Assembly: GCA_047602755.1 (NCBI GenBank)
Contig: JBLKOM010000006.1
Span: 77,561-141,560 of the forward strand
Source: Candidatus Woesearchaeota archaeon
Lineage (GTDB): Archaea > Nanobdellota > Nanobdellia > Woesearchaeales > JACJVV01
Reading direction: 5' to 3'
Length of the DNA: 64,000 nt
The notes below the pieces were generated by a model that was given only the letters and a program-made list of their open reading frames with translations, was not told where the DNA came from and ran no database searches. Below, one piece after another: positions 3,917 through 55,757 of the stretch. The stretch's first letter is position 1. Every line of letters starts with the position of its first letter. The position numbers and the translations under genes are program-made.

Positions 3917-4122
3917 TTTGTTATGCTCTTTCTTGCTCTCCTTCTACTTTAAAATCAGAGTTACTATCTGAGTCTTCAGATGTATTATTTCCATTTAATA
4001 TATTATTTAATTCAGTTTCATTTTTAATTTTAAATAAATTATTAACTCTTTCTATATCCGTAGCACTACTTACATTTCCTAAATATTTAGTTAACATTTG
4101 ATTAAAATTATCTTCTACCATA

Positions 4123-5754
4123 TTAATTATTTCTCCATAAAATAAAAGGATTGAAATTAAAATCAAGTACACCTTGATTTTTTAATTGAGTTTTAATAGT
4201 ATCAGTAGGATTATCAGCATGTTGAATAATTAAATTATTAATTGCATCTAATTCATTATTATCCATTTCTTTATCTAATACAGCTACAAATACTCTTAAA
4301 AAACACATCATAGGATTATCATGTTTATTAACATTAAATATAGGGCTAATTATAACTTTTGGATTACTATAAAAATTATGACAAAAATGATCATCATAAA
4401 CTAATTTTTGAATAGATTTATTTTCATATTTAAAACTAATACTTAAATTTGTTATCTTTAATCTATTATTAAGTTCATGTTTGGTTAATATTTTTGGATT
4501 ATCAAAACCTAATGTGTTGTAATAAGACACAAAAAATACATGATAATGTTTTTTGCCAATTCCTTTTTTAATATGAAAATTAGAATCTTCATTGGAAATA
4601 TTATTACTTATAACATTCATTATTTTTGGAACTGAACCAAAAGGATTATCTAAAGAAGAATTATGAACCTTAATAGTTGTACTCTCAATTAAAACAACTT
4701 TAGAATTATTATCACCTTCATTTATTTCTTTACTTAATATAATATTATTATGTGCTTCTTTAGAAAAATCTGCAATTTGAACAAAAGGAGAAAAGAATTC
4801 TAGTTTTGCTTTTTTATAACCACTATCTTTTAATACAAGTGATTCAATAGATTCAATTTTTGAACCTTCTGGAATATCTTTAAATTCAAAATAACCATCT
4901 TTATCAGCAATAGTAAAAGTAGTTACATCTGGAAGAGTTTTTTGTTGCATATGTTTTTCAGAATTACTTATTTTAAGTTTAATTATATGACCATTTAATC
5001 CAATAGATAAAGGAGTTCTACTACCATCATTACCTGCATAAACATCTTTTGCCCAGTCTAATGCATGTGTATTATCATATTGAATTGGATTTGGACAATC
5101 TGTAATAGTTTCTTTAGTAACAAGTCTACCTTTAATTGTAAATTTTTCTTTACTTTTTCCACCTACATCCCATCTAGTCCATTTCCATCTTAAATCTTCA
5201 TCGTGGATAACTCCAAGTTTATCAAAGAATTTATCAACATCTAATATTTTTTTAAAGGAACCTCTAAATATGTCTTTTAATCTAGGACTTTTTTTTGCTG
5301 CCTTATAAATTTCATTAATCTGATGCTGTTTTGCTCTTGCGGCTCCTAAACCAATTACAGGATATTGTTGAAGTATAGATTCTGGAATTTCTTGAAATTC
5401 ATCTTCAAATGGATGATTAAGTAAAGTTATACCTTGCATACCAAGGAAGTGACCATGAACAAATCCTCCAAATTTAACATTTCCTTCAATTTCACCAGGC
5501 TGTTTTGTTTGCTGTTCTCTTGATGTTACTTGATCAACATTTCCTATTTCTCTAGGATACTTACCACTATTATTTAGCTTTCTAAAAGCCTCATCAGCAT
5601 CACTAGCTTCAAATCCCCACCAAGTATAAAAGAAAATCTCATTTTTTTGCTTTTCTAATTTCTCAACAGGATCTTGCTCATTAGGATTTTCAACTACTTC
5701 ATCAATAACATCTTCAATTATTTCATTCAAGTTGTTAAAATTGTTGTCTGGCAT
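4123..5754 (-). CDS. hypothetical protein (543 aa) with a possible CarboxypepD_reg-like beta-sandwich segment
   Basis: Long ORF. The segment ...GHIIKLKISN...TIADKDGYFEFKDIPEGSKIE resembles carboxypeptidase-regulatory-like domains. No signal peptide. Confidence 0.55.
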   Translation of the reverse strand: MPDNNFNNLNEIIEDVIDEVVENPNEQDPVEKLEKQKNEIFFYTWWGFEASDADEAFRKLNNSGKYPREIGNVDQVTSREQQTKQPGEIEGNVKFGGFVHGHFLGMQGITLLNHPFEDEFQEIPESILQQYPVIGLGAARAKQHQINEIYKAAKKSPRLKDIFRGSFKKILDVDKFFDKLGVIHDEDLRWKWTRWDVGGKSKEKFTIKGRLVTKETITDCPNPIQYDNTHALDWAKDVYAGNDGSRTPLSIGLNGHIIKLKISNSEKHMQQKTLPDVTTFTIADKDGYFEFKDIPEGSKIESIESLVLKDSGYKKAKLEFFSPFVQIADFSKEAHNNIILSKEINEGDNNSKVVLIESTTIKVHNSSLDNPFGSVPKIMNVISNNISNEDSNFHIKKGIGKKHYHVFFVSYYNTLGFDNPKILTKHELNNRLKITNLSISFKYENKSIQKLVYDDHFCHNFYSNPKVIISPIFNVNKHDNPMMCFLRVFVAVLDKEMDNNELDAINNLIIQHADNPTDTIKTQLKNQGVLDFNFNPFILWRNN

Positions 5755-11283: not shown

Positions 11284-11518
11284 TTTATCACCTATTTAAT
11301 AAATAATGTAATACCATTTTTTTGATAATAAAACTTAATAAATATTTATATTTTTAAAATATTATAATTTCAAGGAATAATAATCTAAAAGAATTAGGAA
11401 TTACAAGTTATTTTTCCTTAGTTTATGAAATTAAAAATGTATATTAGAGACATTAATGATTATCACTAATTTTTTAGAATGAATAAATAAAATAAAAAAA
11501 TATAAAATATTTACTTAA

Positions 11519-11794
<276 letters not shown>

Positions 11795-12052
11795 TATAAT
11801 ATCCACCTCTTATTTTATTATAAATTAGGTTATAACACTATTTTGAACTTTATAGTATATAAAGCTTTTTATTTTTTTAATATAATTTATTATTTTTTTA
11901 TAAAAAATAAAATAAATATTTAAAACTAAAAAAATATTCTTTTTTATAAATTTTATTTTATCGACTATAAAATTTAGAATTATTTAAGAAGTAGATAAAA
12001 TCAAATTAATTTTATCAAAAAAATAAAAAAAATAATTTTTTAACTAAAAAAA

Positions 12053-27910: not shown

Positions 27911-27912
27911 TT

Positions 27913-28143
27913 TTAGTACCTCATACCACTAGAATCCAGAACTATATATTCTGGTTCTATCAATGGCAATTTTTTAACACCAAAATCATTGGACAAATCT
28001 TGATTCTTTTCTTGTGCATACTTAATTGCATCTTGAACATCTTGAAATAAATCTTGAATACACACATATGGTTTTTGTTGAGGATAAGAGTCCCACAATA
28101 CAACACCAAATTGTCCTTTTGGTATTTTTTCTTCAATTCCCAT
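27913..28143 (-). CDS. small hypothetical protein (76 aa)
   Basis: ORF ending 2 nt before the LOG-like gene start. May be co-transcribed. Confidence 0.35.
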   Translation of the reverse strand: MGIEEKIPKGQFGVVLWDSYPQQKPYVCIQDLFQDVQDAIKYAQEKNQDLSNDFGVKKLPLIEPEYIVLDSSGMRY

Positions 28144-28500
28144 TTTTATTCTCCAGACAGCTATCGCTATCTTTTTGTTTTAGTTTTTTTTAATTTCAAT
28201 TTTTAATTTGAAAAATAAATTTAGTATGCAAAAATATTTTTAAGAATATTTTTTACATTGCTTATCTAGAACAATTATAATTTACGGCGCTACCCATGAA
28301 ATTTAATTAAATAAAATAAATTAGAATAACTGATTAGTTTATTTTGAAAGAATAAATAAGCTAAAAATATTGGCAATTGGAATAATAAATATGATAATAG
28401 TAATAATAATTTGAATTTTTTTGCATTAGAGTTGAAACTAGAAAAATTAATTTTACCGACAGTGAATATAATCAACTCGTTTCATAGTAATAATTAGAAA

Positions 28501-33509: not shown

Positions 33510-34160
33510 GACCAGTTTCTTTGTTTATAATAATATATACCTAACATACTAATTTCTTAACTAACTAATTAGATTAAGCATAAAAAAATATAAATTCTCA
33601 CTTTTTGGAATAATCACCTTATTTTAATTAAAAAAAACACAAAATATACAAAAAAGTATACTGATTTAATGGTGCCTAAATTTCAAGACATAATAATCTA
33701 GTAAACATATACATAAATAGCTAAATTATTGATATAAATGTCTCACTTTTATCATTATTTTTCTTGGATCATTCCAATAATTACAGAAAAATAAGGTATT
33801 ATTACGCTTATAACTAAAAATATATTGAAATATTTATAGTTTGAATAGGATAATTAAAAAATACGCCAGTTTTTAATAAAAAGGCCAGATTATTTTAGTA
33901 AATACGATATCTAAATAAAAACCGAAATATATATTGATTAAAATGGATTAGTTGTTAAAGATAAATTTGAAAATTCTAGCTAATACTAGTATCATTCTAA
34001 CTAATAGTATGTGATTTTCGCAGAATATTATTTAGTATTTTATTTCTTTCACTTTATTGACTTATATTCAAATAATATAACTATTTATTTTCAATATTTA
34101 AATTAAAGAGCATGTCAAATCAGAAAAAAATAACCCCAAAAAATACTAATTCTAAATGCT

Positions 34161-34188
34161 ATTATCCCAGAATATAACTCTCACTTTT
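34161..34188. repeat. inverted copy of the iteron-like unit (ATTATCCCAGAATATAACTCTCACTTTT, about 26/27 match to the reverse complement of 38167-38199). Partial TCTCACTTTT copies lie at about 33596 and about 33741
   Basis: Direct comparison with the reverse complement of the 38.1-38.4 kb array. Confidence 0.7.
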
Positions 34189-34400
34189 AGCAAAAACAAA
34201 TTATATTCAAATATTTATTTTAAATATTTAAAAATATTATCAAAAATATGTTTTATAAGATATAAGATTCAAAAATTATAAAATAATATGTATTTTAGAT
34301 AAATTATAAATTATTATTATTTATAAGATGATATCATTTAAATAAATATATATTGAATAACATAAATATTTATATATTTAACCATTTAATAATAGTTAAA

Positions 34401-34847
34401 ATGACTGAAAAATTAGATGATAAAATTCAAGAAACAAAGCATAAATACCACATTATTGCCGTCGATGATGAGCCTGCTATGAGAAATCTCATTGAAAAAG
34501 TACTTGATAGAAGTCAAAACTTTACTGTTTATATGTGTGCAACAGGTAAAGAAGTGTTAGAACGATTAGAAGATTTAGCAGTTAATGAAGGACTTTCAAC
34601 CCATTATCATGCATTATTAACAGATTTAAATATGCCTGAAATGAATGGTGTTGAACTTGCAAGACAAGTAAAAAAACTAACTCCAAATATGCCAATATAC
34701 GCTTTTAGTGGAGGATTTGGTGGACAAATTCCTGATGATTTATTCAATGGGAATATTAAAAAACCAGTATCACCTTCTGAACTAAAATCAACATTAAAAA
34801 CCTATCTTGATCAAGTTTATGCAAGCCAAAGGACTCATCAAGATTAA
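34401..34847 (+). CDS. single-domain response regulator (CheY-like receiver)
   Basis: HIIAVDDEPAMRNLIEKVL...LLTDLNMPEMNGVELARQVKKL...K (receiver-domain acidic pocket, phospho-Asp and Lys). The ORF-track start at 34353 adds an unlikely hydrophobic extension, so the ATG at 34401 is preferred. Confidence 0.65.
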   Translation: MTEKLDDKIQETKHKYHIIAVDDEPAMRNLIEKVLDRSQNFTVYMCATGKEVLERLEDLAVNEGLSTHYHALLTDLNMPEMNGVELARQVKKLTPNMPIYAFSGGFGGQIPDDLFNGNIKKPVSPSELKSTLKTYLDQVYASQRTHQD

Positions 34848-35298
34848 GTAAAACTATTCAAAACCGAAAAAATTAGCCTTTCATTTATAAAGGAAGCTTA
34901 TAAATAGCTTAAATTTCTTCTTTTTTTTATGTTGATGAAGTTTGATACCTAAAAAAAACTTAAAGTTTTCATTTTGGGCTTAATTTTAGCCAGGATTGCA
35001 ATAAAATCCCGACAAAAATCACGAACTATCAAAAATAAAAATTATCAAAAATTGATACTTTCTTGAGAAATCCCGTATATGTCGCTATAATCCCCTCTTA
35101 AATGGATTTATTCCGACAAATAAGGTTAAGGTACTTTTCACCAATAAGCCCCATTCAACAACAAAATCTACAAAAAGAACTAAAAAAGTGATAATTAGGG
35201 GATTATCCAGTACACATTTGATAAAGTGTAAAAAACCTAAAAAAAACGAGAAAATATTGTTTTTATTGTTTCAAAACCAAGCATTATGATCTGAAATA

Positions 35299-35487
35299 CT
35301 AACATAAAATAACACCTTCTTCAAGTACACGAAACATCTCAGAACGCTTGTTTTTAACAAAATCTGCCTTACAAGAATCACAGTTGTAAACTTTGATTTG
35401 TCTATGCCGTGAAACTTGAACTTTGCTAGGACTTATTTTTTGTCCGCAAGATGGACAAGGTATTTTTTCACTTAGGAAATCGAACAT
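35299..35487 (-). CDS. small Cys4 zinc-ribbon protein (62 aa)
   Basis: CPSCGQ...x17...CDSC. Confidence 0.45.
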   Translation of the reverse strand: MFDFLSEKIPCPSCGQKISPSKVQVSRHRQIKVYNCDSCKADFVKNKRSEMFRVLEEGVILC

Positions 35488-35547
35488 TTTTTCACCTCTT
35501 AGCTACTCTCATGCTGAGGTTTCATCACTAAATTTACTTCATTAAAT

Positions 35548-36072
35548 TTATTCATCATCTTTGTCTAAATTTGAATCTGTTGAGTTACTTTGATTAGTAT
35601 TTTCTAAGTTATCATCTGATCTTAATTTATCCTTTTTTAACTCATTTTGGAACTTGTGAACAATATCAAGTGTGGTACTTAAATGATTTTGAATAGTGTA
35701 TTCGGCCTTTTTAAAAGCTGATTCCATATTTGAACCGTTTAGTTCATATCCTGTAATTATTCTTCCGTCGCTAACAAAAGATGTTTTTTTAAGGAAATTT
35801 AATACCAACCAGCGGTTTAAATGGTCATACATTGTTTGTCTTTTAATACCTGCTTGTAAACCCATTTCTTCTACTGTCATAACTGCTAACTCAGGTTTTC
35901 TATCACGATTTGCCAATTTTTTGCGTTCATAAAGTTCAATTAAAAGCTTATGAAATTTGGCTAGAGCATCCTTTTTTCTAGGCACTATGCCAAGTCTTGC
36001 AAGTATTATTTTTGCCAATTCCTCTGAAGAGGCACTATCTACTGGTTCTACTAAATCCAGTTCAATCTTCAT
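35548..36072 (-). CDS. winged-helix DNA-binding protein (174 aa)
   Basis: The central segment (MTVEEMGLQAGIKRQTMYDHLNRWLVLNFLKK) looks like an HTH recognition helix plus wing. Acidic S/N/D-rich tail. Confidence 0.5.
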   Translation of the reverse strand: MKIELDLVEPVDSASSEELAKIILARLGIVPRKKDALAKFHKLLIELYERKKLANRDRKPELAVMTVEEMGLQAGIKRQTMYDHLNRWLVLNFLKKTSFVSDGRIITGYELNGSNMESAFKKAEYTIQNHLSTTLDIVHKFQNELKKDKLRSDDNLENTNQSNSTDSNLDKDDE

Positions 36073-36143
36073 AAGTTTTGAGTATATTAGTATACATATT
36101 TATATATTTTTTGGTCGTTATCCCCTAAAAAGAAAGTAAGAAA

Positions 36144-36680
36144 TCATAAATTTAGAACATTTTGCTTCATCTGAATATCTCTGAATTTAGAATCTAACCG
36201 AATGAAAATAGATTGATCAAGATAGTTTTTTACAATAGGAACTCCTTTTTCAATTAAAGAAATCACATATTCTCTAACTAATGTGGTCGACATTTTTAAA
36301 ACTTCAGAAAGTAAAAAATATGTAATTTTAGCATTTTCAATATCAAGCTCATAGATTACTCGAAATACTTTTTTTTCCTCATCTGTTAAGGGCAGAACAG
36401 AAAAAGATTCTTGTTCTTCATCGTCTAAAAAATAGATATTTTGAGATTTGTACTGCTTGATAAATCGATGGATATCAGTAAGAACACTTTCAATTTTATC
36501 AATTCTAGTTTCCAATTTTAGCAATAACTCGTAATTACTTTGAATCTCGCTAGTATTTTCATTTATTGCATCTAAATGGTCTTCAAATTCTTTTTTTACC
36601 TTAGAAAAAGCTTTTCTTGTCTCTTTTTCAATTTTATCTAGCTTTCTAGATTCTATAAATGATTTTAAAAGCTTATCCAA
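36144..36680 (-). CDS. coiled-coil plus C-terminal winged-helix protein (178 aa)
   Basis: N-terminal heptad repeats. C-terminal ...LTDEEKKVFRVIYELDIENAKITYFLLSEVLKMSTTLVREYVISLIEKGVPIVKNY (wHTH-like). Confidence 0.5.
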   Translation of the reverse strand: MDKLLKSFIESRKLDKIEKETRKAFSKVKKEFEDHLDAINENTSEIQSNYELLLKLETRIDKIESVLTDIHRFIKQYKSQNIYFLDDEEQESFSVLPLTDEEKKVFRVIYELDIENAKITYFLLSEVLKMSTTLVREYVISLIEKGVPIVKNYLDQSIFIRLDSKFRDIQMKQNVLNL

Positions 36681-36778
36681 TGTTTAATCCCCCACTAGAC
36701 CTATAAGCTAAGCATTTAAATGAATATTGGTTGAAGAAAGTATAGCATAAAATAATTTGATTGATTCATCTAGAAATA

Positions 36779-37792
36779 TTATCTTGGATGTACGGCATTA
36801 TCTAAAGCATAAAAATAATGCTTTTCTTTTCCCTCATGCAGCACATGTATTCCTTCTTCTTCTTCAATCTCAGTTAAAATACGATAAAATGAAGATTTTG
36901 AAACAATCCCTTGGTCCTCGACAACAATCTCTCTTAAATCCAATCCTGAAATTTTTTGATGTTTCTTAATTAACGACATTAACATACTTTTTACGTATTC
37001 CTTTGAATGCCTAGTCACTTTTTTGAATATACGTTCCTTAAGATTTTGCTTTGGAGATGTTTTATCTTGAAGAGTATTTAGATTAGTTTTAAGCTCTGAA
37101 ATCTGATTATTGAGATCAGAAAGCTGTTGAAATACAGCTGGTGTTTGTATAGTAACTTCTGGTAAAGTTTGAATAGGTTGAAGTTGAGAAATTGCAGGAT
37201 TTTTAGGTAGACTAGATATAATTTCTTCTTTTAACTCAACTCTTAAATCATCTCGTAAATCATGCCTTAAATCATATCTTAAATCCTGCCTTAAATCACG
37301 TCTGATATCCTGCTTAAAATCATGCATTTTTAGCTTGATTTCTTGCTCCATTTCATTACGATTAGGTATTGTCTTGGAAAATTCCTCTAAGCGTTGAAAA
37401 ATACTCTTTTGATTTGAATATAAAGCACCTATATGCTCATTAAACTCACTACGCATTGAAACTAATGATTTATTTATAGTTTCAATATTAGCATAATATT
37501 CGTCGACAAAATGCTTTATTTCTTGCTTTGTTAAAATATCACTTAAACGATGATTAACAAGCACTAAATTAGCATTAATCTTGTCCTGACCATGATGAAG
37601 ATAATTGACCCATTGCTTTAGATGTGTTACGTCGTCTTTAACATTTTTAAATGAATCTTGTAAAGAATTATCTAATTTTTCTAGCCTTACTTCTACCTTG
37701 TTATTGATCTTTTCTTGAGATTTCCATTTTGAAAAAAACATAGCTGTAATTTGATCGTATTTATTTATAAAAATTATTGTTCTGAGGGACAA
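36779..37792 (-). CDS. coiled-coil protein with a DLR-repeat segment and a C-terminal winged helix (337 aa). Same architecture as the 178-aa neighbour
   Basis: DIRRDLRQDLRYDLRHDLRDDLR tandem peptide repeat. C-terminal ...GLDLREIVVEDQGIVSKSSFYRILTEIEEEEGIHVLHEGKEKHYFYAL. Confidence 0.5.
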   Translation of the reverse strand: MSLRTIIFINKYDQITAMFFSKWKSQEKINNKVEVRLEKLDNSLQDSFKNVKDDVTHLKQWVNYLHHGQDKINANLVLVNHRLSDILTKQEIKHFVDEYYANIETINKSLVSMRSEFNEHIGALYSNQKSIFQRLEEFSKTIPNRNEMEQEIKLKMHDFKQDIRRDLRQDLRYDLRHDLRDDLRVELKEEIISSLPKNPAISQLQPIQTLPEVTIQTPAVFQQLSDLNNQISELKTNLNTLQDKTSPKQNLKERIFKKVTRHSKEYVKSMLMSLIKKHQKISGLDLREIVVEDQGIVSKSSFYRILTEIEEEEGIHVLHEGKEKHYFYALDNAVHPR

Positions 37793-37807
37793 TAATAGGA
37801 CTGTTTT

Positions 37808-38648
37808 GGGAATGAAATGGGAATGAAAAAATAATTTTATCGACTATAAAATAGTCTCATTCCCAAAAAATAAGACTATTCTGGGAATATATTGGGAATG
37901 AGTTAGGAATGAAGCAAAAAGATAGGCATATTTTGATAAAAAAAAGCATGCAAATTGAAGTAAAAGTAACAAAGAAATTGAAGCAAAAAATAGAAGAATA
38001 TTACTTAATAACAATATTTTTAGGCACCATGGAAATAACCTAAAATTATGCTTAAAATAGATCATAATAAGCATTTAATAATTATGCAAATGTATAATAT
38101 AGCAAAAAGTGAGCAAAAACAAAGAAAAAATAACCAAAATAAAGCAAAAAACCACTAAAAATGGTAAAAAGTGAGAGTTATATTCTGGATAAATCCCCTA
38201 AAATAATCAAAAAATGGTAAAAAGTGAGAGTTATAATATGCTAAAATCCCGAAAAGAGTAGAAAAAGTATTGAAAGTGAGAATTAGTTAGGTTATAATCC
38301 CCTAAAATAAGCAGTAAAAAGCAATAAGTGAGATATTATTATGGGTTAATCCCCTATTTTTAGTTATAGTTAATAAAAATAGAGAAAAATAGCAGATTTC
38401 TGATTATTTAATGTAAAATATCCTTAAAAACAGCCTAATTGTATTAATGAATGCTTAATATTACATAAAGTCTAATTTCTAAAATTAATCCAAATACTAC
38501 CTTAATTAATTTTAAAAATCACCAATTGTAATAATCCTATTATCATTCCTAACTTCATTCCTAACTTCATTCCCAACTTCATTCCCAACTATAAATAGGA
38601 CTATTTGTCGACGATGAATTGATTTATTGTGGGAATGAGAATGAATTC
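37808..38648. repeat. composite repeat region: GGAATGA(A/G)-type repeats (37808-37915) and, in inverted orientation, a 12-bp CATTCC(T/C)AACTT x4 tandem (38545-38592), bracketing five iteron-like direct repeats AAAGTGAGA-N17-19-(T)AATCCC(C/G)TAAAATAA (38104-38361)
   Basis: Direct reading. Iteron units are near 38104, 38167-38206, 38220-38256, 38276-38310 and 38324-38361. Confidence 0.8.
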
Positions 38649-38768
38649 AATATAAAAAATATAGCAAAAAATTTAACAAGGAAAACTTAATAAAAACTGT
38701 ATGAATTAATAATAAATATTTAATCAAAAAAGTAATAAAGAATAAAGTATTTTACCGACTTATCTAAT

Positions 38769-39865: not shown

Positions 39866-40417
39866 ATGGCATTTATAAGAAAAAAAAAGATTAACGGAAA
39901 AGAATATGCATATTTAGTTAAAAATAAGTGGACTGATAAAGGAAGCAGACAAAAAGCTAAATATCTTGGAAAAATAATACATTTAGATATTATTGATACG
40001 ACTATTAATTTTCGTGATATGATTTTACGAAAGTATAATTTACAAATAGATGAATTTTTTAAAAAAAATTCTAAAGCTGATATAACTAATGAAATTATAT
40101 ATTATGAATTAATACGAAGAGGTTTTGATTGGGAAAAAATAGAAATCAATCAGGAAAAACGAAATCTTTTAGCAAATCAAAAGTATTATTACAAAGCAAG
40201 AAATGTTTATAGCAAAAAGAATCATAGAGAAGCTATAATTGAAATAAATGAAGGTTTTTTATGCAAAATAACATTAGACAAATTAACAAGAACAAAAATA
40301 ACAGGTTATGATGAAAGAGAGAAAGGAATACAACTTGCAAAATTACTTTTAGAATCAGGACTTAAAATTGATAGAGATTTATTTGTAACTATGTATGAAA
40401 GATGGGTTGATGATTGA
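39866..40417 (+). CDS. hypothetical basic protein (183 aa)
   Basis: ORF with N-terminus KINGKEYAYLVKNKWTDKGSRQKAKYLGK. Family not recognised. Confidence 0.5.
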   Translation: MAFIRKKKINGKEYAYLVKNKWTDKGSRQKAKYLGKIIHLDIIDTTINFRDMILRKYNLQIDEFFKKNSKADITNEIIYYELIRRGFDWEKIEINQEKRNLLANQKYYYKARNVYSKKNHREAIIEINEGFLCKITLDKLTRTKITGYDEREKGIQLAKLLLESGLKIDRDLFVTMYERWVDD

Positions 40418-52241: not shown

Positions 52242-55200
52242 TTATTTAACATATTTTGAATTTTCTTTCAAATAATTAATAAGTGATTTAGGCCATACTT
52301 TAGGGATAGGAGGTTCTAATAAATCATTTAACCATTTTTTGAATTTTCTATCAAAAATTCCCTTTGGATTTTCTATAAAACGCTCAAGTTCAAAATAAAT
52401 TAATGGTTCAAGATTAACATTTCTATGAACTTCATGCATTTCTTGTAATAATTTGGAAATTTTTTGCTGGTTTGTATCATTTTCAGCTTTCAAAGAAGTA
52501 TTATCATTAGTTTTATTATCTTTACTATCAGAATTATTCCATTCATCTTCATATGAGAAATATTCATCAGCTTTTTTAATCAAGAATTCTGCAAGATCTT
52601 TAGGCCATTTTCTTCTAACAAATTTTTCATATTTTTTAATTTTCTGTAAAATATCTTTATCAAAAGGTTGCTCATTTATACAACGAGCAATTTGCATTTT
52701 TGCTTCTAATGGTATTTTATCTTCTAAATCATATAACTGTTTTGCTAATTTCTTTTGAGATTTATTTCCACGATGTTTTATATGAGAAATAAAATCTTTA
52801 AATTCTCTAACTGGATTTGCTGTCAAATCAATTTTAGGAAGATTAAAATCAAAGGCCTCATTTTTTTTACCTTTATCAACTGCAATCTTTGCTAAAACAA
52901 ATTCATGCATACGCTTTAGGAAATCTAGCTTGTCATCTATTTTTAGTACATCAGTATAGCCTTGTAATACTAACTGAAATGCAAAAGGTGAGGGTATTTG
53001 TGTTGTTATTTCTTCTACTTTTGTTTTTGAATCACGTAAATTATTTACTACAACTATAGTGCTTTTTATATCCATTGAATCTTCAAGAACTTCACGCCTT
53101 GCTTCTTTTAAAACAGGAAAATCAGTACTTATTCCTTTAACTGCACTCATCAATATTGTAGAAATTGATTGTTGTTTTCCTGCTCTTTTTGTTCTTCCCA
53201 TATATGTACGTAAAATCATTAATGATCTTTCAGCACAATGTCTAAAACGACGTTTTAATACTTCAGTCTTATCAATTGCTAAATCCATTATTTGGTATAA
53301 ATCGCTTGTTGTTAATACTTTAATGATATCTTTAAGCTTAATACTCTTCTCTGTGCCTATGTAAAACCCATTATCATTAATTCCAATCTCAACATCAGTA
53401 TTTTCATACTTAGAGATAATATAACCTATAGCTCTTGAAAGACAGTCATTAACTCTTCTACCATATAATGTATGAAATATTATTTTTTTACCACGTTCAT
53501 CTTTATAGTATTCTACAAGTATACGCTTAGAAGAAGGGATTAATGCATAATCATATTGTTCTTTTAAATAAATATAAATTGCCTCAGCAGCCTTTTTATT
53601 AACATATAAATATGTATTAATGAAATCTATAATTTCTTTTTTAGATTTTTTTGCTTTGAATTTATCTTCCATTAAATTACGAAATTTAAGTATATCATTT
53701 GCAAGATCAAAACTTAACGGAAGCATTTCAGATACCCAACTTGGAACAGTTGGAGGTTTTCCAATACTTACTTCAACTGTTGCAGTCATTCCTCTTGCAT
53801 ATCTAAACTCATATGTTGCACCACCTAAAACAAAAATATCACGCTTTCTTAACCTCTCAAGAAAAGTTTCATCAAGACTTCCAATGATTTGATTTCCTAG
53901 TTTTACTTTTACACCAGATTGACTTGGTATTGTACCTATGTTAGTCATATATAATATTCTAGTCATTTTACCACGTTTGCCAATCTTACCATCTTTACGC
54001 CATATTTTTGAATAAACACTTCTATCTTCTAATTCAGAATATTCACCTGCAAGATAACTGATTATTGCATCAAAATCTCTTCTTGGTAAATCTCTATAAG
54101 AGTAGGTATTTGTTACAAGCTCATATAATTCATTTTCATCCCAAACTTCTTGAATAGCGGCACCAAGTACTTGCTGTGAGAGTACATCTAATGCATTTCT
54201 TGGGATGTAAATTCTATCAATTTTTTTTTCTACAGCATTTTTTAAAAGAACAGAACATTCAACCAAATCATCTCTATCCATTACAATTATTCTTCCTTTG
54301 GTAGTTTCATGCAATTTATGACCACTTCTACCTATACGTTGCAATGCTCTTGCAACTGTTTTTGGACTTCCTAAACAAATAACAAGATCAATATAACCAA
54401 TATCAATACCTAATTCTAATGATGTTGAACAAACAACAGCTTTAAGTTTTCCTTCACGTAATCTTCTTTCAATATTATGGCGATGTTCTTTACTTAAACT
54501 TCCATGATGAGCTCCAATACCTTTAGCATGATCGATTTCATCATCAGTTTTATCTATTGTCTCAGTATAATTTCTGGGAAACATTTCACGAAGATGATGA
54601 ACAACACGTTCAGTTGCAGCCCTAGTATTTGTAAAAATTAAAGTAGTTTTATGCTTCTGAATTAATTCATCAATTAATGCATAAGTTTTTCTATGAAGAT
54701 CAGAATATGTAATATCAACAAGATTATCAACTGCGGATATTACTTGTAAATCTAATTGTTTAATAAATTGTACATTAACAATTTTACATTCTCGATTATT
54801 TCCTACTAAGAATTCGGCAATCTCTTCCAAAGGAGAAACAGTAGCAGATAAACCAATTCTTGTTAAGGCACCATTGTTTAAGTGTTGCAATCTTTCAATA
54901 CTTAACATAAGATGAGTTCCACGTTTGTTTTCAGCAAGTGCGTGGATTTCATCAATAATACACCATTCAACATTTTTCATATTATCAACAAACTTAATTG
55001 AAGATAAAACTATTGCAAGACTTTCAGGAGTTGTTATTAATATATGAGGTGGTTTAGCAAGCATCTTCGCTTTTTCAGAAGTTGTTGTATCACCGCCACG
55101 TACTGCTACCCTTATATCAATTTCACGATTATATTTTCTTGCTATTTCTTTTATTTCTTCTAACGGCTCAACAAGATTTACTCTAATATCTTCATTAAGT

Positions 55201-55562
55201 GCTTTTAATGGTGATATATATATAGCATATATTCTATTCTCTAGTATTCCCTTATCAGCAGAATCTACTAATTCATTTAATATACTGAGAAAACCTGTTA
55301 AAGTTTTAGTTGCACCAGTTGGAGCTGAAACAACTATATTATTTCTGCTATGTATTTCCATAACTGCATGTAATTGAGGCAAGGAATAATCTTTAAATTT
55401 ACTATAAAACCACTCTTTCACAAAAGGATGTAAAATCTTATCTAATTCTGCTTTAGTGTTTGGTTTTTCTTTAAAGCTAATTCTTGTTTTCATACTTATA
55501 TTTAGTATTTTTTTGGGCATATATACACAAATTTTAAAACGTTTATAAGCCTTATGAAGCAA
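52242..55562 (-). CDS. lhr: Lhr-like large DExH-box helicase (superfamily 2) with a roughly 250-aa C-terminal extension (1106 aa)
   Basis: VVSAPTGATKTL (Walker A), IIDEIHAL (DExH), SATV, HHGSLSKEHR...VVCSTSLELGIDIG, QRIGRSGH (motif VI). Long Lhr-core-like middle region. Confidence 0.8.
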   Translation of the reverse strand: MLHKAYKRFKICVYMPKKILNISMKTRISFKEKPNTKAELDKILHPFVKEWFYSKFKDYSLPQLHAVMEIHSRNNIVVSAPTGATKTLTGFLSILNELVDSADKGILENRIYAIYISPLKALNEDIRVNLVEPLEEIKEIARKYNREIDIRVAVRGGDTTTSEKAKMLAKPPHILITTPESLAIVLSSIKFVDNMKNVEWCIIDEIHALAENKRGTHLMLSIERLQHLNNGALTRIGLSATVSPLEEIAEFLVGNNRECKIVNVQFIKQLDLQVISAVDNLVDITYSDLHRKTYALIDELIQKHKTTLIFTNTRAATERVVHHLREMFPRNYTETIDKTDDEIDHAKGIGAHHGSLSKEHRHNIERRLREGKLKAVVCSTSLELGIDIGYIDLVICLGSPKTVARALQRIGRSGHKLHETTKGRIIVMDRDDLVECSVLLKNAVEKKIDRIYIPRNALDVLSQQVLGAAIQEVWDENELYELVTNTYSYRDLPRRDFDAIISYLAGEYSELEDRSVYSKIWRKDGKIGKRGKMTRILYMTNIGTIPSQSGVKVKLGNQIIGSLDETFLERLRKRDIFVLGGATYEFRYARGMTATVEVSIGKPPTVPSWVSEMLPLSFDLANDILKFRNLMEDKFKAKKSKKEIIDFINTYLYVNKKAAEAIYIYLKEQYDYALIPSSKRILVEYYKDERGKKIIFHTLYGRRVNDCLSRAIGYIISKYENTDVEIGINDNGFYIGTEKSIKLKDIIKVLTTSDLYQIMDLAIDKTEVLKRRFRHCAERSLMILRTYMGRTKRAGKQQSISTILMSAVKGISTDFPVLKEARREVLEDSMDIKSTIVVVNNLRDSKTKVEEITTQIPSPFAFQLVLQGYTDVLKIDDKLDFLKRMHEFVLAKIAVDKGKKNEAFDFNLPKIDLTANPVREFKDFISHIKHRGNKSQKKLAKQLYDLEDKIPLEAKMQIARCINEQPFDKDILQKIKKYEKFVRRKWPKDLAEFLIKKADEYFSYEDEWNNSDSKDNKTNDNTSLKAENDTNQQKISKLLQEMHEVHRNVNLEPLIYFELERFIENPKGIFDRKFKKWLNDLLEPPIPKVWPKSLINYLKENSKYVK

Positions 55563-55757
55563 TGTCTTATGGTAATAATTAATATAAAGCCAAAGGCCAA
55601 ATTTAAGATAATAGTCTCATTCCCAACATATTTATCGTCAATAAATAGTCCCAATTTATAATTGGGATTAAGATGATAATAACACAAAAGTTAGCTGATA
55701 ATATAGGTAAGACTATGCTACATAAAATATATATACTACTTTCATTTAAAGCAAAAG

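Follow-up and report, generated by a model that had tools for sequence, protein, structure and literature searches.

Helically phased repeat arrays around three wHTH genes in Woesearchaeota: a candidate autoregulatory operator hub

Three wHTH genes in a Woesearchaeota (DPANN) genome are bordered by noncoding stretches of 891, 451 and ~1,000 bp carrying oppositely oriented repeats, which raises the question of whether this locus is a replication origin or an integrated replicon, as the original prediction had it, or a site of another kind. We examined it within a window of 64,000 nucleotides, the whole stretch of DNA analyzed, whose numbering is used throughout, and in related genomes. All three noncoding stretches are present as predicted and lie among the longest gaps of the window, where the median gap is 66 bp; two other long gaps contain an unlisted 95-aa ORF (11284-12052) and a putative 76-aa ATG ORF (27911-28500). 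The genes likewise encode small proteins of DNA-binding type, with wHTH folds in F0, F1 and F2 and a receiver domain confirmed by Pfam. The locus is laid out as follows.

33510-34400, no strand assigned: left arm, noncoding, 891 bp (2nd by length among window gaps), 17.8% GC; motifs and polarity kept in the left arms of relatives
34401-34847, plus strand: receiver, 148 aa, single-domain response regulator (Pfam Response_reg, E = 8.6e-16)
34848-35298, no strand assigned: region B, 451 bp noncoding (5th by length), homologous to the upstream region of F0 in the common gene order
35299-35487, minus strand: zinc-ribbon protein, 62 aa (CPSC...CDSC), with weak matches, all below curated cut-offs
35548-36072, minus strand: F0, 174 aa, wHTH protein; helices at the N terminus, one long C-terminal helix, acidic tail
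36144-36680, minus strand: F2, 178 aa, N-terminal coiled coil and C-terminal wHTH, weak HTH_24 match
36779-37741, minus strand: F1, 320 aa, three long helices, disordered linker and C-terminal wHTH; first gene of the operon
37742/37793-38768: noncoding stretch of the right arm, ~980-1030 bp as set by the start codon of the 320-aa gene (1st by length)

F0 is the most conserved of the three wHTH proteins, with a mean pairwise identity of 67% and an invariant recognition helix, GIKRQTMYDYLxRW; over 500 homologues share 53-86% identity with it, and a separate search gave 55 cluster representatives out of 1.84 billion. Its AlphaFold2 model has a pLDDT of 85 and that of F1 a pLDDT of 71, and searches return only generic wHTH matches for both. 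F1 contains an in-frame 12-nt repeat (x7, 37219-37326), and its ATG at 37741 is preceded by a TATA-like TTTTTATAAATAAA at 37760-37773. The F2 family occurs in 37 loci at a mean pairwise identity of 45%; the two coiled-coil wHTH proteins had been taken for paralogs, a relationship that hhalign does not detect (probability <3%), nor does it relate F2 to F0. The receiver gene is lineage-specific and lies outside the conserved core: the window and relative L002 have it, L004 has a diverged version, and the common arrangement lacks it. The zinc-ribbon protein turned up in the window and in its closest relative, L002, alone, with no call in L004 or L006.

About 40 independent metagenomic relatives share gene order, motifs and motif polarity, with the locus in the same place on the chromosome, between PAC2 and Rpo11; a single locus was recovered per contig, in fixed synteny. 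L002, L004 and L006 also carry the gene trio with its flanking genes and motifs. The common order runs PAC2, left arm, F0, with F0 convergent with F2 and F1; these two are transcribed from the right arm, which also faces the methyltransferase/Rpo11 genes. The arms show inverted symmetry because each forms the upstream region of a different one of the two convergent wHTH units. In the window lineage F0 has been inverted, so that it now lies in the F1-F2 operon, and the receiver gene has been inserted. This inversion, together with iteron-like direct repeats adjoining small DNA-binding protein genes, could be taken as the mark of an integrated plasmid or virus, of which the locus would be a remnant; however, every sampled relative has the locus at the same position between housekeeping genes, F0 belongs to the lineage core and is among the most conserved proteins of the neighborhood, and the composition of the locus is that of the surrounding genome. 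Neither a rep or integrase gene nor att-like flanks are present, there are no relatives in IMG/VR or PLSDB, and PHROG gives no matches of note. We therefore reject the predicted integrated replicon, which we consider extremely unlikely.

The repeats themselves are confirmed and extend further than originally described: at least four motif classes (AAAAGTGAG, TGGGAATG, TTAGGCAC and TTGTCGG) are confined or nearly confined to the locus. AAAAGTGAG forms a 52-53 bp array in the right arm and has inverted copies in the left arm; AAGTGAGA copies and full units are located as listed.

33596, 33741 and 34179, minus strand: AAGTGAGA copies in the left arm
34161-34188: full inverted unit in the left arm
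38104-38361, plus strand: five units spaced 52-53 bp apart, except for 62 bp following the first unit, which is degenerate

Both partial copies proposed near 33596 and 33741 are thus minus-strand AAGTGAGA, the inverted copy at 34161-34188 matches 38167-38188 exactly over 22 nt, and the five direct copies are all found, the first being degenerate. The seven AAGTGAGA copies in 64 kb only mildly exceed chance (2.46 expected; 2/100 shuffles reach 7); what is non-random is their placement, since all are noncoding and lie within 33596-38333, they are split by strand, and the four plus-strand copies on the right recur every 52-53 bp, with a degenerate fifth, AAGTGAGC, at 38107. The right-array unit reads AAAAAGTGAGA, N14-17, (A/T)AATCCC(C/G). 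L002 and L004 carry this array with an identical period; in distant relatives the spacing is irregular, and the orientation of the unit's second half changes from lineage to lineage. Across 34 distinct loci, AAAGTGAG occurs 223 times in the arms (taken as 2.5-kb and 1.5-kb regions) vs 11 times in 261 kb beyond them, about chance by our estimate, which was made without a shuffle control. Its polarity in relatives is 125 plus vs 0 minus in the right arm and 74 minus vs 24 plus in the left. The arrays are accordingly locus-specific by these counts rather than common intergenic filler, and the sampled DNA has no AAAAGTGAG copy at other promoters; AAAAGTGAG therefore behaves as a dedicated site, not as a regulon motif. 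One-way orientation this strict (125 to 0) would be compatible, too, with a directional process, for instance the binding of iterons, a polar barrier or the termination of transcription.

Could these arrays mark a chromosomal origin, possibly a two-part one, in which they would serve as origin-recognition elements around AT-rich unwinding regions? The initiators would be Orc1/Cdc6 or, by analogy with WhiP at Sulfolobus oriC3, the local wHTH proteins; a winged-helix initiator encoded beside its own origin has precedent (PMC4010727). Oppositely oriented arrays, long AT-rich noncoding DNA, including the second most AT-rich 120 bp of the window (34201-34320, 6.7% GC), and order-wide conservation with fixed synteny are consistent with such a site. 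The skew data, however, are not: many relatives show a strong strand bias at third codon positions, computed independently of gene orientation, and in all 17 loci where each flank gives a clear value the sign is unchanged from one side to the other; the pooled side effect is 0.02-0.03 with a 95% interval that includes 0, against a constant of 0.22. No third-codon switch crosses the locus in the window, where cumulative GC skew has a local minimum near 36-37 kb, one of several that track gene strand. Orc1/Cdc6 is reported to be a single-copy core gene of the phylum (preprint 10.64898/2026.05.13.725050); none lies within 10 kb in 44 related loci, and the absence of Orc1/Cdc6, Rep and integrase genes noted in the original prediction holds among the window ORFs scanned. 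The unit had been likened to an origin-recognition box with a G-string, a likeness that fails, and the mini-ORB consensus is absent from the locus. Moreover, the opposed arrays lie 3.5-4 kb apart with genes between them, flanking no short unwinding element, and the motifs sit close to promoters. An origin is thus unsupported here, and we hold it improbable. The predicted iteron-like arrays stand as real and locus-specific, and their spacings are whole helical turns, like those of iterons or operators; the origin and replicon readings attached to them do not.

The remaining motif classes are positioned as follows.

33668-33680, minus strand: inverted TTTAGGCACCAT copy, left arm
35009-35015 and 35113-35119: CCGACAA boxes (TTGTCGG on the minus strand), 104 bp apart
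35081-35095: GTCGCTATAATCCCC, region B
37785-37912, plus strand: box array A, made up of nine (G/A)GGA(A/C)T boxes that are spaced 11-12 bp apart, with one inverted (37851-37865)
38019-38031, plus strand: TTTAGGCACCATG site in the right arm, a TTTAGGCACCAT copy mirroring 33668-33680
38535-38644, no strand assigned: box array B and composite site, ~125 bp upstream of the methyltransferase gene; kept in L002 and L004
39812-39824, minus strand: TTTAGGCACTAGG, ~50 nt upstream of F5, a conserved gene of 183 aa (39866-40417)
55611-55651, minus strand: second composite-site copy, off the locus (GGACTATTTATTGACGAT, N8, TGGGAATGAGACTAT)

The TGGGAATG boxes adjoin promoters at 11-12 bp spacing; as GGGAATGA, they lie on both sides of the 52-bp array, which the original prediction missed, and number 9 matches in the window vs 1.2 expected (0/100 shuffles). 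Box array A encloses a near-palindrome, TTATCGACTATAA, and abuts the F1 TATA box, from which it is separated by 8-12 nt, with a further ~26 nt to the ATG. The 450 bp preceding F1 hold 4-24 same-strand boxes in 37 distinct genomes, and the distances between boxes peak at 11, 22, 33, 44 and 54-55 bp. Box array B consists of four TCATTCC(T/C)AACT boxes in minus orientation at 12-bp spacing (38543-38590), followed by GGACTATTTGTCGACGAT (38598-38615) and TGGGAATGAGAATGA (38630-38644). Searches for this composite site recover the copy at 55611-55651 with 0 mismatches, where even at 2 mismatches none is expected by chance; it lies ~50 nt upstream of an Lhr-type helicase gene (52242-55562, minus strand; Lhr domains matched), in the same orientation as the copy before the methyltransferase gene. 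Of the sequence upstream of lhr, this site is the block best conserved in the closest relative, L207; L208 and L209 lack it. This copy, too, was absent from the original prediction.

TTTAGGCACCAT/TTTAGGCACCATG, whose inverted pair in the two arms the original prediction also passed over, has 5 matches vs 1.25 expected (0/100 shuffles), and the right-arm site is kept in L002, L004 and across the family. GTGCCTAA lies 13-26 nt before the F5 start codon in 12/25 genomes and 35-62 nt upstream in three more, the window included, always in the same orientation. Upstream of F6, TTAGGCAC is found in 14/22 genomes (at ~-100 in 6 of them) and GTGCCTAA in three. In region B, the predicted further copies are present as ATAATCCCCT (35086-35096) and AGGGGATTATCCAG (35197-35210), and the original prediction overlooked the TTGTCGG boxes, whose 104-105 bp spacing is kept in many genomes, distant relatives included, as is the GTCGGGATAA...TTATCCCGAC dyad in distant relatives.

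Conserved noncoding blocks of this kind might instead be unannotated RNAs (small RNAs, a long leader or a degenerate CRISPR-like array), with the repeats as RNA elements or signals. Region B starts with a TATA-like block and is well conserved with L002 and L004, and relatives have a TATA-like block after a CTCACTTTTGTT copy. Yet no Rfam family matches even at E = 10, chance-level hits aside, no tRNAs are present, cas genes are absent, and RNAalifold yields neither a supported structure nor covariation, with no consensus structure for region B. The TTAGGCAC "stem" is broken in L198 without compensation, and both the irregular array spacing in distant relatives and the reversal of the unit's second half between lineages argue against an RNA, for which we see little likelihood. 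T-runs terminate archaeal transcription, and CTCACTTTTT copies, which face inward from both sides, could on similarly slim odds be terminators insulating the core: CTCACTTTT ends in a T-run and its orientation in both arms is the one that would stop transcription entering the core, but that run is just 4-5 nt.

A rather unlikely alternative, though a likelier one than these, is that the phased boxes and the 52-bp array nucleate a large coiled-coil wHTH complex, own-promoter control being a side effect; like ParR/parC or TubR/tubC, such a centromere-like complex would mark, bridge or anchor a chromosomal position. In plasmid R1 parC the parMR promoter lies between two sets of five 11-bp repeats, a layout that the boxes on the F1 operon promoter resemble, and tandem 52-53 bp units, each with a short site, recall F plasmid sopC. 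Up to 24 same-strand boxes of 11-bp period on the promoter of the candidate binders' own operon, the restriction of AAAAGTGAG to the locus, one locus per contig and long coiled coils that, from the models, could bridge DNA would all fit such a complex. Against it, no ParA, ParM, TubZ or SegA-type NTPase gene lies in or beside the locus in 44 relatives, the GGGAAT composite site has a second copy, 17 kb off, at an ordinary promoter, and TTAGGCAC keeps fixed distances from the start codons of neighboring genes.

The observed motifs, with their locus restriction, polarity, phasing, conservation and promoter-adjacent positions, are best read, at about even odds (probability ~0.5), as helically phased operators of an autoregulated trio of lineage-specific wHTH proteins, the region being a regulatory hub that all sampled Woesearchaeota relatives retain and the motifs presumed binding sites. 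Against this reading, up to ~25 phased boxes with 500-1000 bp of noncoding DNA go far beyond usual archaeal operators, AAAAGTGAG behaves as a dedicated site, and only the closest relative conserves the lhr site. The local wHTH proteins are the obvious candidate binders, and the long helices of their modeled folds appear suited to oligomerization. We propose that F0, F1 and F2 would dimerize or oligomerize through these helices and bind cooperatively to sites set whole helical turns apart, at 11, 52-53 and 104 bp, and that the bound proteins may coat, wrap or loop the DNA. Binding would set output from their own promoters, the divergent methyltransferase/Rpo11 promoter and F5, and in the window lineage also from the Lhr helicase gene. 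Three wHTH families face at least three shared motif classes, and because rates of change match, we tentatively suggest, as guesswork, that nearly invariant F0 pairs with invariant AAAAGTGAG or TTAGGCAC and faster-evolving F1 or F2 with the drifting GGGAAT/GGGAC boxes.

The DNA comes from a Candidatus Woesearchaeota (DPANN) MAG and has a GC content of 27%; NCBI has an identical entry, from a genome of this kind, for the 174-aa protein encoded at 35548-36072. Archaeal housekeeping genes surround the locus, with functions including a PAC2 proteasome chaperone, a small methyltransferase, the RNA polymerase subunit Rpo11/L, and histidine biosynthesis. Its three noncoding stretches of 891, 451, and ~1,000 bp are, respectively, the second-longest, fifth-longest, and longest gaps of the window, where the median gap is 66 bp; of the remaining long gaps, one holds a small unlisted ORF and another a 76-aa ORF of unknown status. 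The elements of the locus and two outlying genes are:

33510-34400, noncoding, left arm
34848-35298, noncoding, region B
35548-36072, minus strand, F0, a 174-aa wHTH protein
36144-36680, minus strand, F2, 178 aa
36779-37741, minus strand, F1, 320 aa
about 37742-38768, noncoding, right arm
39866-40417, F5, a conserved 183-aa gene
52242-55562, minus strand, lhr, an Lhr-type helicase gene

The repeat arrays and the three long noncoding stretches claimed in the original prediction are present. AAGTGAGA occurs seven times in 64 kb, always within the locus, with three left-hand copies on the minus strand and four right-hand copies on the plus strand at 52-53 bp spacing (a fifth right-hand copy is degenerate); the count by itself is mildly unusual, being reached in 2 of 100 shuffles, and the non-random part of the pattern is its placement, strand partition, and period. 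The left-hand inverted copy and one right-hand unit have 22 exact bases in common. Similarity among the units of the 52-bp array is 63-85%; distant relatives space them irregularly, and the ATCCCC half is reversed in some lineages relative to others. On both sides of this array lie GGGAATGA boxes spaced 11-12 bp apart and oppositely oriented (9 matches vs 1.2 expected), each arm carries one copy of TTTAGGCACCAT, mutually inverted, and the middle noncoding stretch has two CCGACAA boxes 104 bp apart. A 120-bp AT-rich stretch at 34201-34320 has counterparts in other gaps. In a k-mer comparison of four genomes, the noncoding parts of the locus contained 30 copies of AAAGTGAG and 29 of CATTCCCA, vs 0 and 1, respectively, in the flanks.

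The same neighborhood was recovered in three relatives on long contigs and in 80 further metagenomic loci. Over 34 distinct loci, the arm regions hold 223 copies of AAAGTGAG against 11 copies in 261 kb outside the regions taken as arms, a background close to chance by our estimate; the arrays are thus not intergenic filler. Copy polarity in these loci is strict in the right arm (125 plus, 0 minus) and predominantly minus in the left (74 minus, 24 plus). The locus is usually arranged as PAC2(+), left arm, F0(+), F2(-), F1(-), right arm, methyltransferase or the neighbor gene F6(+), Rpo11(+), F5, UPP synthase, and the ribosomal proteins L1, L10, and L12. In this order the wHTH genes form two convergent transcription units, each with one arm as its upstream region, which gives the inverted symmetry a simple cause, and CTCACTTTT has the same orientation relative to the downstream unit for either arm. 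In the lineage of the window (the window, L002, and L004), F0 has been inverted and placed after F2, a receiver gene follows the left arm, and region B was left behind with its motifs retained. The core gene content is F0, F1, and F2 alone, accompanied in this lineage by a zinc ribbon and a receiver. A tblastn search with the ORFs that relatives carry in the left arm gave no pseudogene remnant there. In higher-GC relatives (L181 9181-9263, L183 2744-2828, L148 4284-4368, and similar left arms), two inverted TTAGGCAC sites surround an 83-85 bp segment that is GC-rich (47-56%), variable in sequence, and without a conserved fold.

The original prediction offered an integrated replicon as one explanation of the arrays, and correctly stated that no rep or integrase gene is present, as domain scans also found. 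An integrated plasmid or virus with iterons is contradicted by this lack of rep and integrase domains, by more than 500 F0 homologues (the best 120 of these 57-86% identical), by fixed synteny in about 40 genomes, and by the absence of F0 relatives in IMG/VR or PLSDB. In a full HMMER pass the F0 family had only 55 members among 1.84 billion cluster representatives; F0 is thus a core gene confined to its lineage, and an integrated replicon is thereby ruled out. A histogram of contig ends piling up at the arms mainly reflects short contigs and was set aside. Separately, the locus lies 0-72 kb from a contig end in 8/8 contigs longer than 138 kb (L002, L004, L005, L006, L140, L190, L197, and L201), with the PAC2 side facing that end in 6/8; the locus may have a neighbor in conserved synteny that resists assembly, possibly an rRNA operon or a variable island.

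The model of F0 (pLDDT 85) combines N-terminal helices and a 45-residue C-terminal helix with a winged helix, which is built of three helices plus a beta-hairpin wing and has matches of the MarR/ArsR/TFE-alpha type. F1 consists of three long helices, a disordered linker, and a C-terminal wHTH at pLDDT about 90, while F2 has a coiled-coil N-terminus and a weak HTH_24 match. None of the three has a match above curated cut-offs in Pfam, NCBIfam, or PHROGs, nor was there one in the PDB profile search; structure and profile searches returned generic winged-helix relatives only, and similarity to Cdt1 or WhiP is not detectable. The suggestion in the original prediction that the two coiled-coil wHTH proteins are paralogs did not hold up, F0, F1, and F2 being mutually without detectable paralogy. 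Within the F1 gene (37219-37326, minus strand), a 12-nt unit is repeated seven times in frame and encodes a D(L/I)RxDLR-type tetrapeptide run in the helical part of the protein. The Lrs14/AbfR family and Sso10a are nucleoid-associated, self-regulating proteins. These small archaeal wHTH proteins with a C-terminal dimerization helix share with F0 a wHTH followed by a long helix, and AbfR2 (6cmv) is among the Foldseek matches of F0. In PMC11841832 and PMC12529230, such proteins are assigned a dual part in gene regulation and nucleoid organization.

Mean pairwise identity is 67% for F0 vs 41% for F1 and 45% for F2; AAAAGTGAG and TTAGGCAC stay invariant throughout the family, vs boxes that drift from GGGAATG to GGGAC(N)GTC. 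This parallel between a far more conserved protein and invariant motifs is suggestive, though no proof, of F0 binding an invariant motif and F1 or F2 the boxes.

The candidate sites adjoin the core promoters of F1, of the methyltransferase, and of lhr, and also occur upstream of F5 and F6. On the F1 sense strand, the box array reaches within about 10 nt of TTTTTATAAATAAA, a block 26 nt before the F1 ATG; judged from sequence, this distance is the geometry of a leaderless archaeal promoter. Nine such boxes, 11-12 bp apart, lie directly against the F1 TATA box in the window, and in 37 distinct genomes 4-24 same-strand (G/A)GGA(A/C) boxes lie within 450 bp upstream of F1, with spacing peaks at 11, 22, 33, 44, and 54-55 bp. 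An ATCGAC/GTCGAT/GTCGAC core is found upstream of F1 in 27/37 genomes and sits in a TTATCGACGATAA-type palindrome in the sequences read. The motifs fall into four classes, namely AAAAGTGAG units, GGGAAT boxes accompanied by a GTCGACGA palindrome, TTAGGCAC, and TTGTCGGGAT. A composite of GGACTATTTGTCGACGAT and TGGGAATGAGA lies upstream of the methyltransferase gene; a second copy, in the same orientation, lies 17 kb away and about 50 nt upstream of lhr. This composite is the best-conserved block in the lhr upstream region of the closest relative and is absent from that region in two more distant relatives. GTGCCTAA precedes the F5 start codon by 13-26 nt in 12/25 genomes and by 35-62 nt in 3 more, and TTAGGCAC is found upstream of F6 in 14/22 genomes, often near -100. 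Such placements look like those of operators. The region 55563-55757 is a divergent promoter region between lhr and an unknown 194-aa gene; it holds this second copy of the composite, a GGGAAT/GTCGACGAT-type site and the only one detected beyond the focal locus in the 64 kb.

Based on these observations, we propose, with a probability of about 0.5, that the locus encodes an autoregulated winged-helix trio with helically phased operator arrays, which would also control neighboring housekeeping promoters and lhr in this lineage. Arrays of this kind are known from plasmid R1 ParR/parC, TubR/tubC, and the pSM19035 omega heptads, in which short direct repeats lie one helical turn apart. In ParR/parC-type arrays two clusters occupy the promoter of the operon encoding the binding protein, and cooperative coating doubles as autoregulation; ParR and omega are ribbon-helix-helix proteins. 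The locus resembles these systems in having helically phased short repeats on the promoter of the presumed binder's operon. It differs in that no partner NTPase motor (ParM, ParA, TubZ) was found in any locus and in that the candidate binders are coiled-coil wHTH proteins without detectable relatives; further, it is chromosomal and archaeal and has two or three additional motif classes plus the 52-bp array. A second parallel is sopC of the F plasmid, which consists of tandem 43-bp units with one short binding site each. Like sopC and plasmid iterons, the locus has tandem ~50-bp units with a short conserved core, one orientation, and whole-helical-turn phasing; unlike them, it has no SopA/SopB or Rep, only 4-5 units, a chromosomal promoter setting, and irregular spacing in distant relatives.

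The size of the arrays, their strict polarity, and the confinement of AAAAGTGAG to the locus would also fit a centromere-like or chromosome-organizing role, which we consider unlikely and against which the missing motor speaks. Equally doubtful is the broader proposal that the locus is the chromosome's own organizing or segregation center, or a winged-helix-dependent replication control site. Here, ~2 kb of dedicated DNA would carry a large complex, polar and in helical phase, built by three lineage-specific coiled-coil wHTH proteins; if true, this would be a centromere-like system without a recognizable motor, invented in Woesearchaeota.

A replication origin, the other explanation in the original prediction, fares worse. 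TTCCANTGGAAA, taken by us as the mini-ORB consensus, has 0 matches with ≤2 mismatches in 33510-38768 and falls below chance in the window; the likening of the repeat unit to an archaeal origin-recognition box is not borne out. In Pfam and NCBIfam scans, the window ORFs covered had no AAA+/Cdc6 domain, and none of 44 related loci has an Orc1-like Walker-A protein (300-520 aa) within 10 kb; Orc1/Cdc6 is reported to be a single-copy core gene in this phylum (preprint 10.64898/2026.05.13.725050). At Sulfolobus oriC3, the gene for the winged-helix initiator WhiP adjoins the origin (PMC4010727). As at oriC3 and ORB-repeat origins, the locus has opposed repeats, AT-rich DNA, and an adjacent winged-helix protein gene; unlike them, it lacks a nearby orc1/cdc6, an ORB consensus, and a skew switch, and its arrays are 3.5-4 kb apart. 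ORB or mini-ORB repeats closely flanking an AT-rich unwinding element in inverted orientation were not found, and the opposed AAGTGAG clusters are separated by 3.5-5.6 kb (median about 4.0 kb), a distance that takes in three genes.

At window scale, GC and AT skew track the coding strand and have several equivalent local minima, which makes them uninformative on replication. The strongest origin test was third-codon-position skew separated from gene orientation, on flanks reaching 8-33 kb and run without an orc1 locus as positive control. On either side of the locus in L006, a relative on a long contig whose gene calls come from the database, third positions show A>T and C>G in plus-strand genes and the opposite bias in minus-strand genes read in their own sense. 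Pooling 39 loci gave an orientation-independent term of 0.22 for AT3 and -0.15 for GC3, with a left-right difference of 0.02-0.03 whose bootstrap interval includes zero. The sign is equal on both flanks in 17/17 related loci with clear values on both, and two more loci are near zero on both sides; the genome of the window has a weak third-position bias without a switch. Orientation-independent strand bias normally comes from replication. If it does so here, forks cross the locus one way, and it is neither an origin nor a terminus. With the skew test, the lack of Orc1, and the lack of ORB motifs against it, we rejected an origin as the leading reading and regard it as a remote minority possibility. 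The orientation-independent bias is itself strong in many relatives (L006, L152, L164/L169, L180, L188, L201), reaching 0.4-0.7; on the PAC2-to-Rpo11 strand A exceeds T and C exceeds G, weakly (0.06-0.09) in the window's genome and with the reverse bias in L141, and the r-protein and Rpo11 genes are on the A- and C-rich strand.

The locus is real and conserved, and the literature searched contained no description of it, of the F proteins, or of Woesearchaeal origins. DPANN genomes are compact (typical gene gap ~66 bp), yet at this locus the sampled Woesearchaeota relatives retain a noncoding ~2 kb in which the sites keep their sequence, polarity, and helical phase, beside genes for three DNA-binding proteins without detectable relatives elsewhere. 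To our knowledge, nothing in gene regulation or chromosome organization has been probed experimentally in this group, and the locus is a compact, self-contained candidate protein-DNA system that is directly testable in vitro, either as a regulatory switch of unusual complexity next to genes for RNA polymerase and ribosomal proteins or as a chromosome-organizing site. The analysis also removes a false lead, in that the locus is unsuitable as an origin marker for rotating or analyzing Woesearchaeales genomes.

A structured noncoding RNA or a CRISPR array was likewise rejected. ARAGORN found no tRNAs, Rfam gave no match at gathering scores and, with the limit raised to E = 10, chance-level matches only, and RNAalifold yielded no supported pairs and no covariation for either the TTAGGCAC pair or region B; one partner of the TTAGGCAC pair is lost in L198 without compensation. 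There are no cas genes, and the array units, only 63-85% alike and irregularly spaced in relatives, also argue against a CRISPR array. The reversal of the ATCCCC half between lineages likewise speaks against an RNA reading. A genome-collection scan for three copies of AAGTGAG had unrelated bacterial repeat families among the matches listed. The only Nanoarchaeales match among those listed, L084, is an unrelated perfect 50-bp repeat, present three times in tandem at 4070-4200 (AAAGTGAGATTATTTTTAGTGACCAAGGGGAACGAGTATAATTTCCGAAC) downstream of ribonucleotide reductase genes, and the AAGTGAGA word is its sole likeness to the window. Elsewhere in the window, a 769-bp "gap" at 11284-12052 contains a 95-aa ORF (11519-11806, minus strand) consisting of little but KKKAAKKKPAKKK repeats; its product resembles a basic repeat protein of the histone-H1/AlgP-like kind and is possibly nucleoid-associated.
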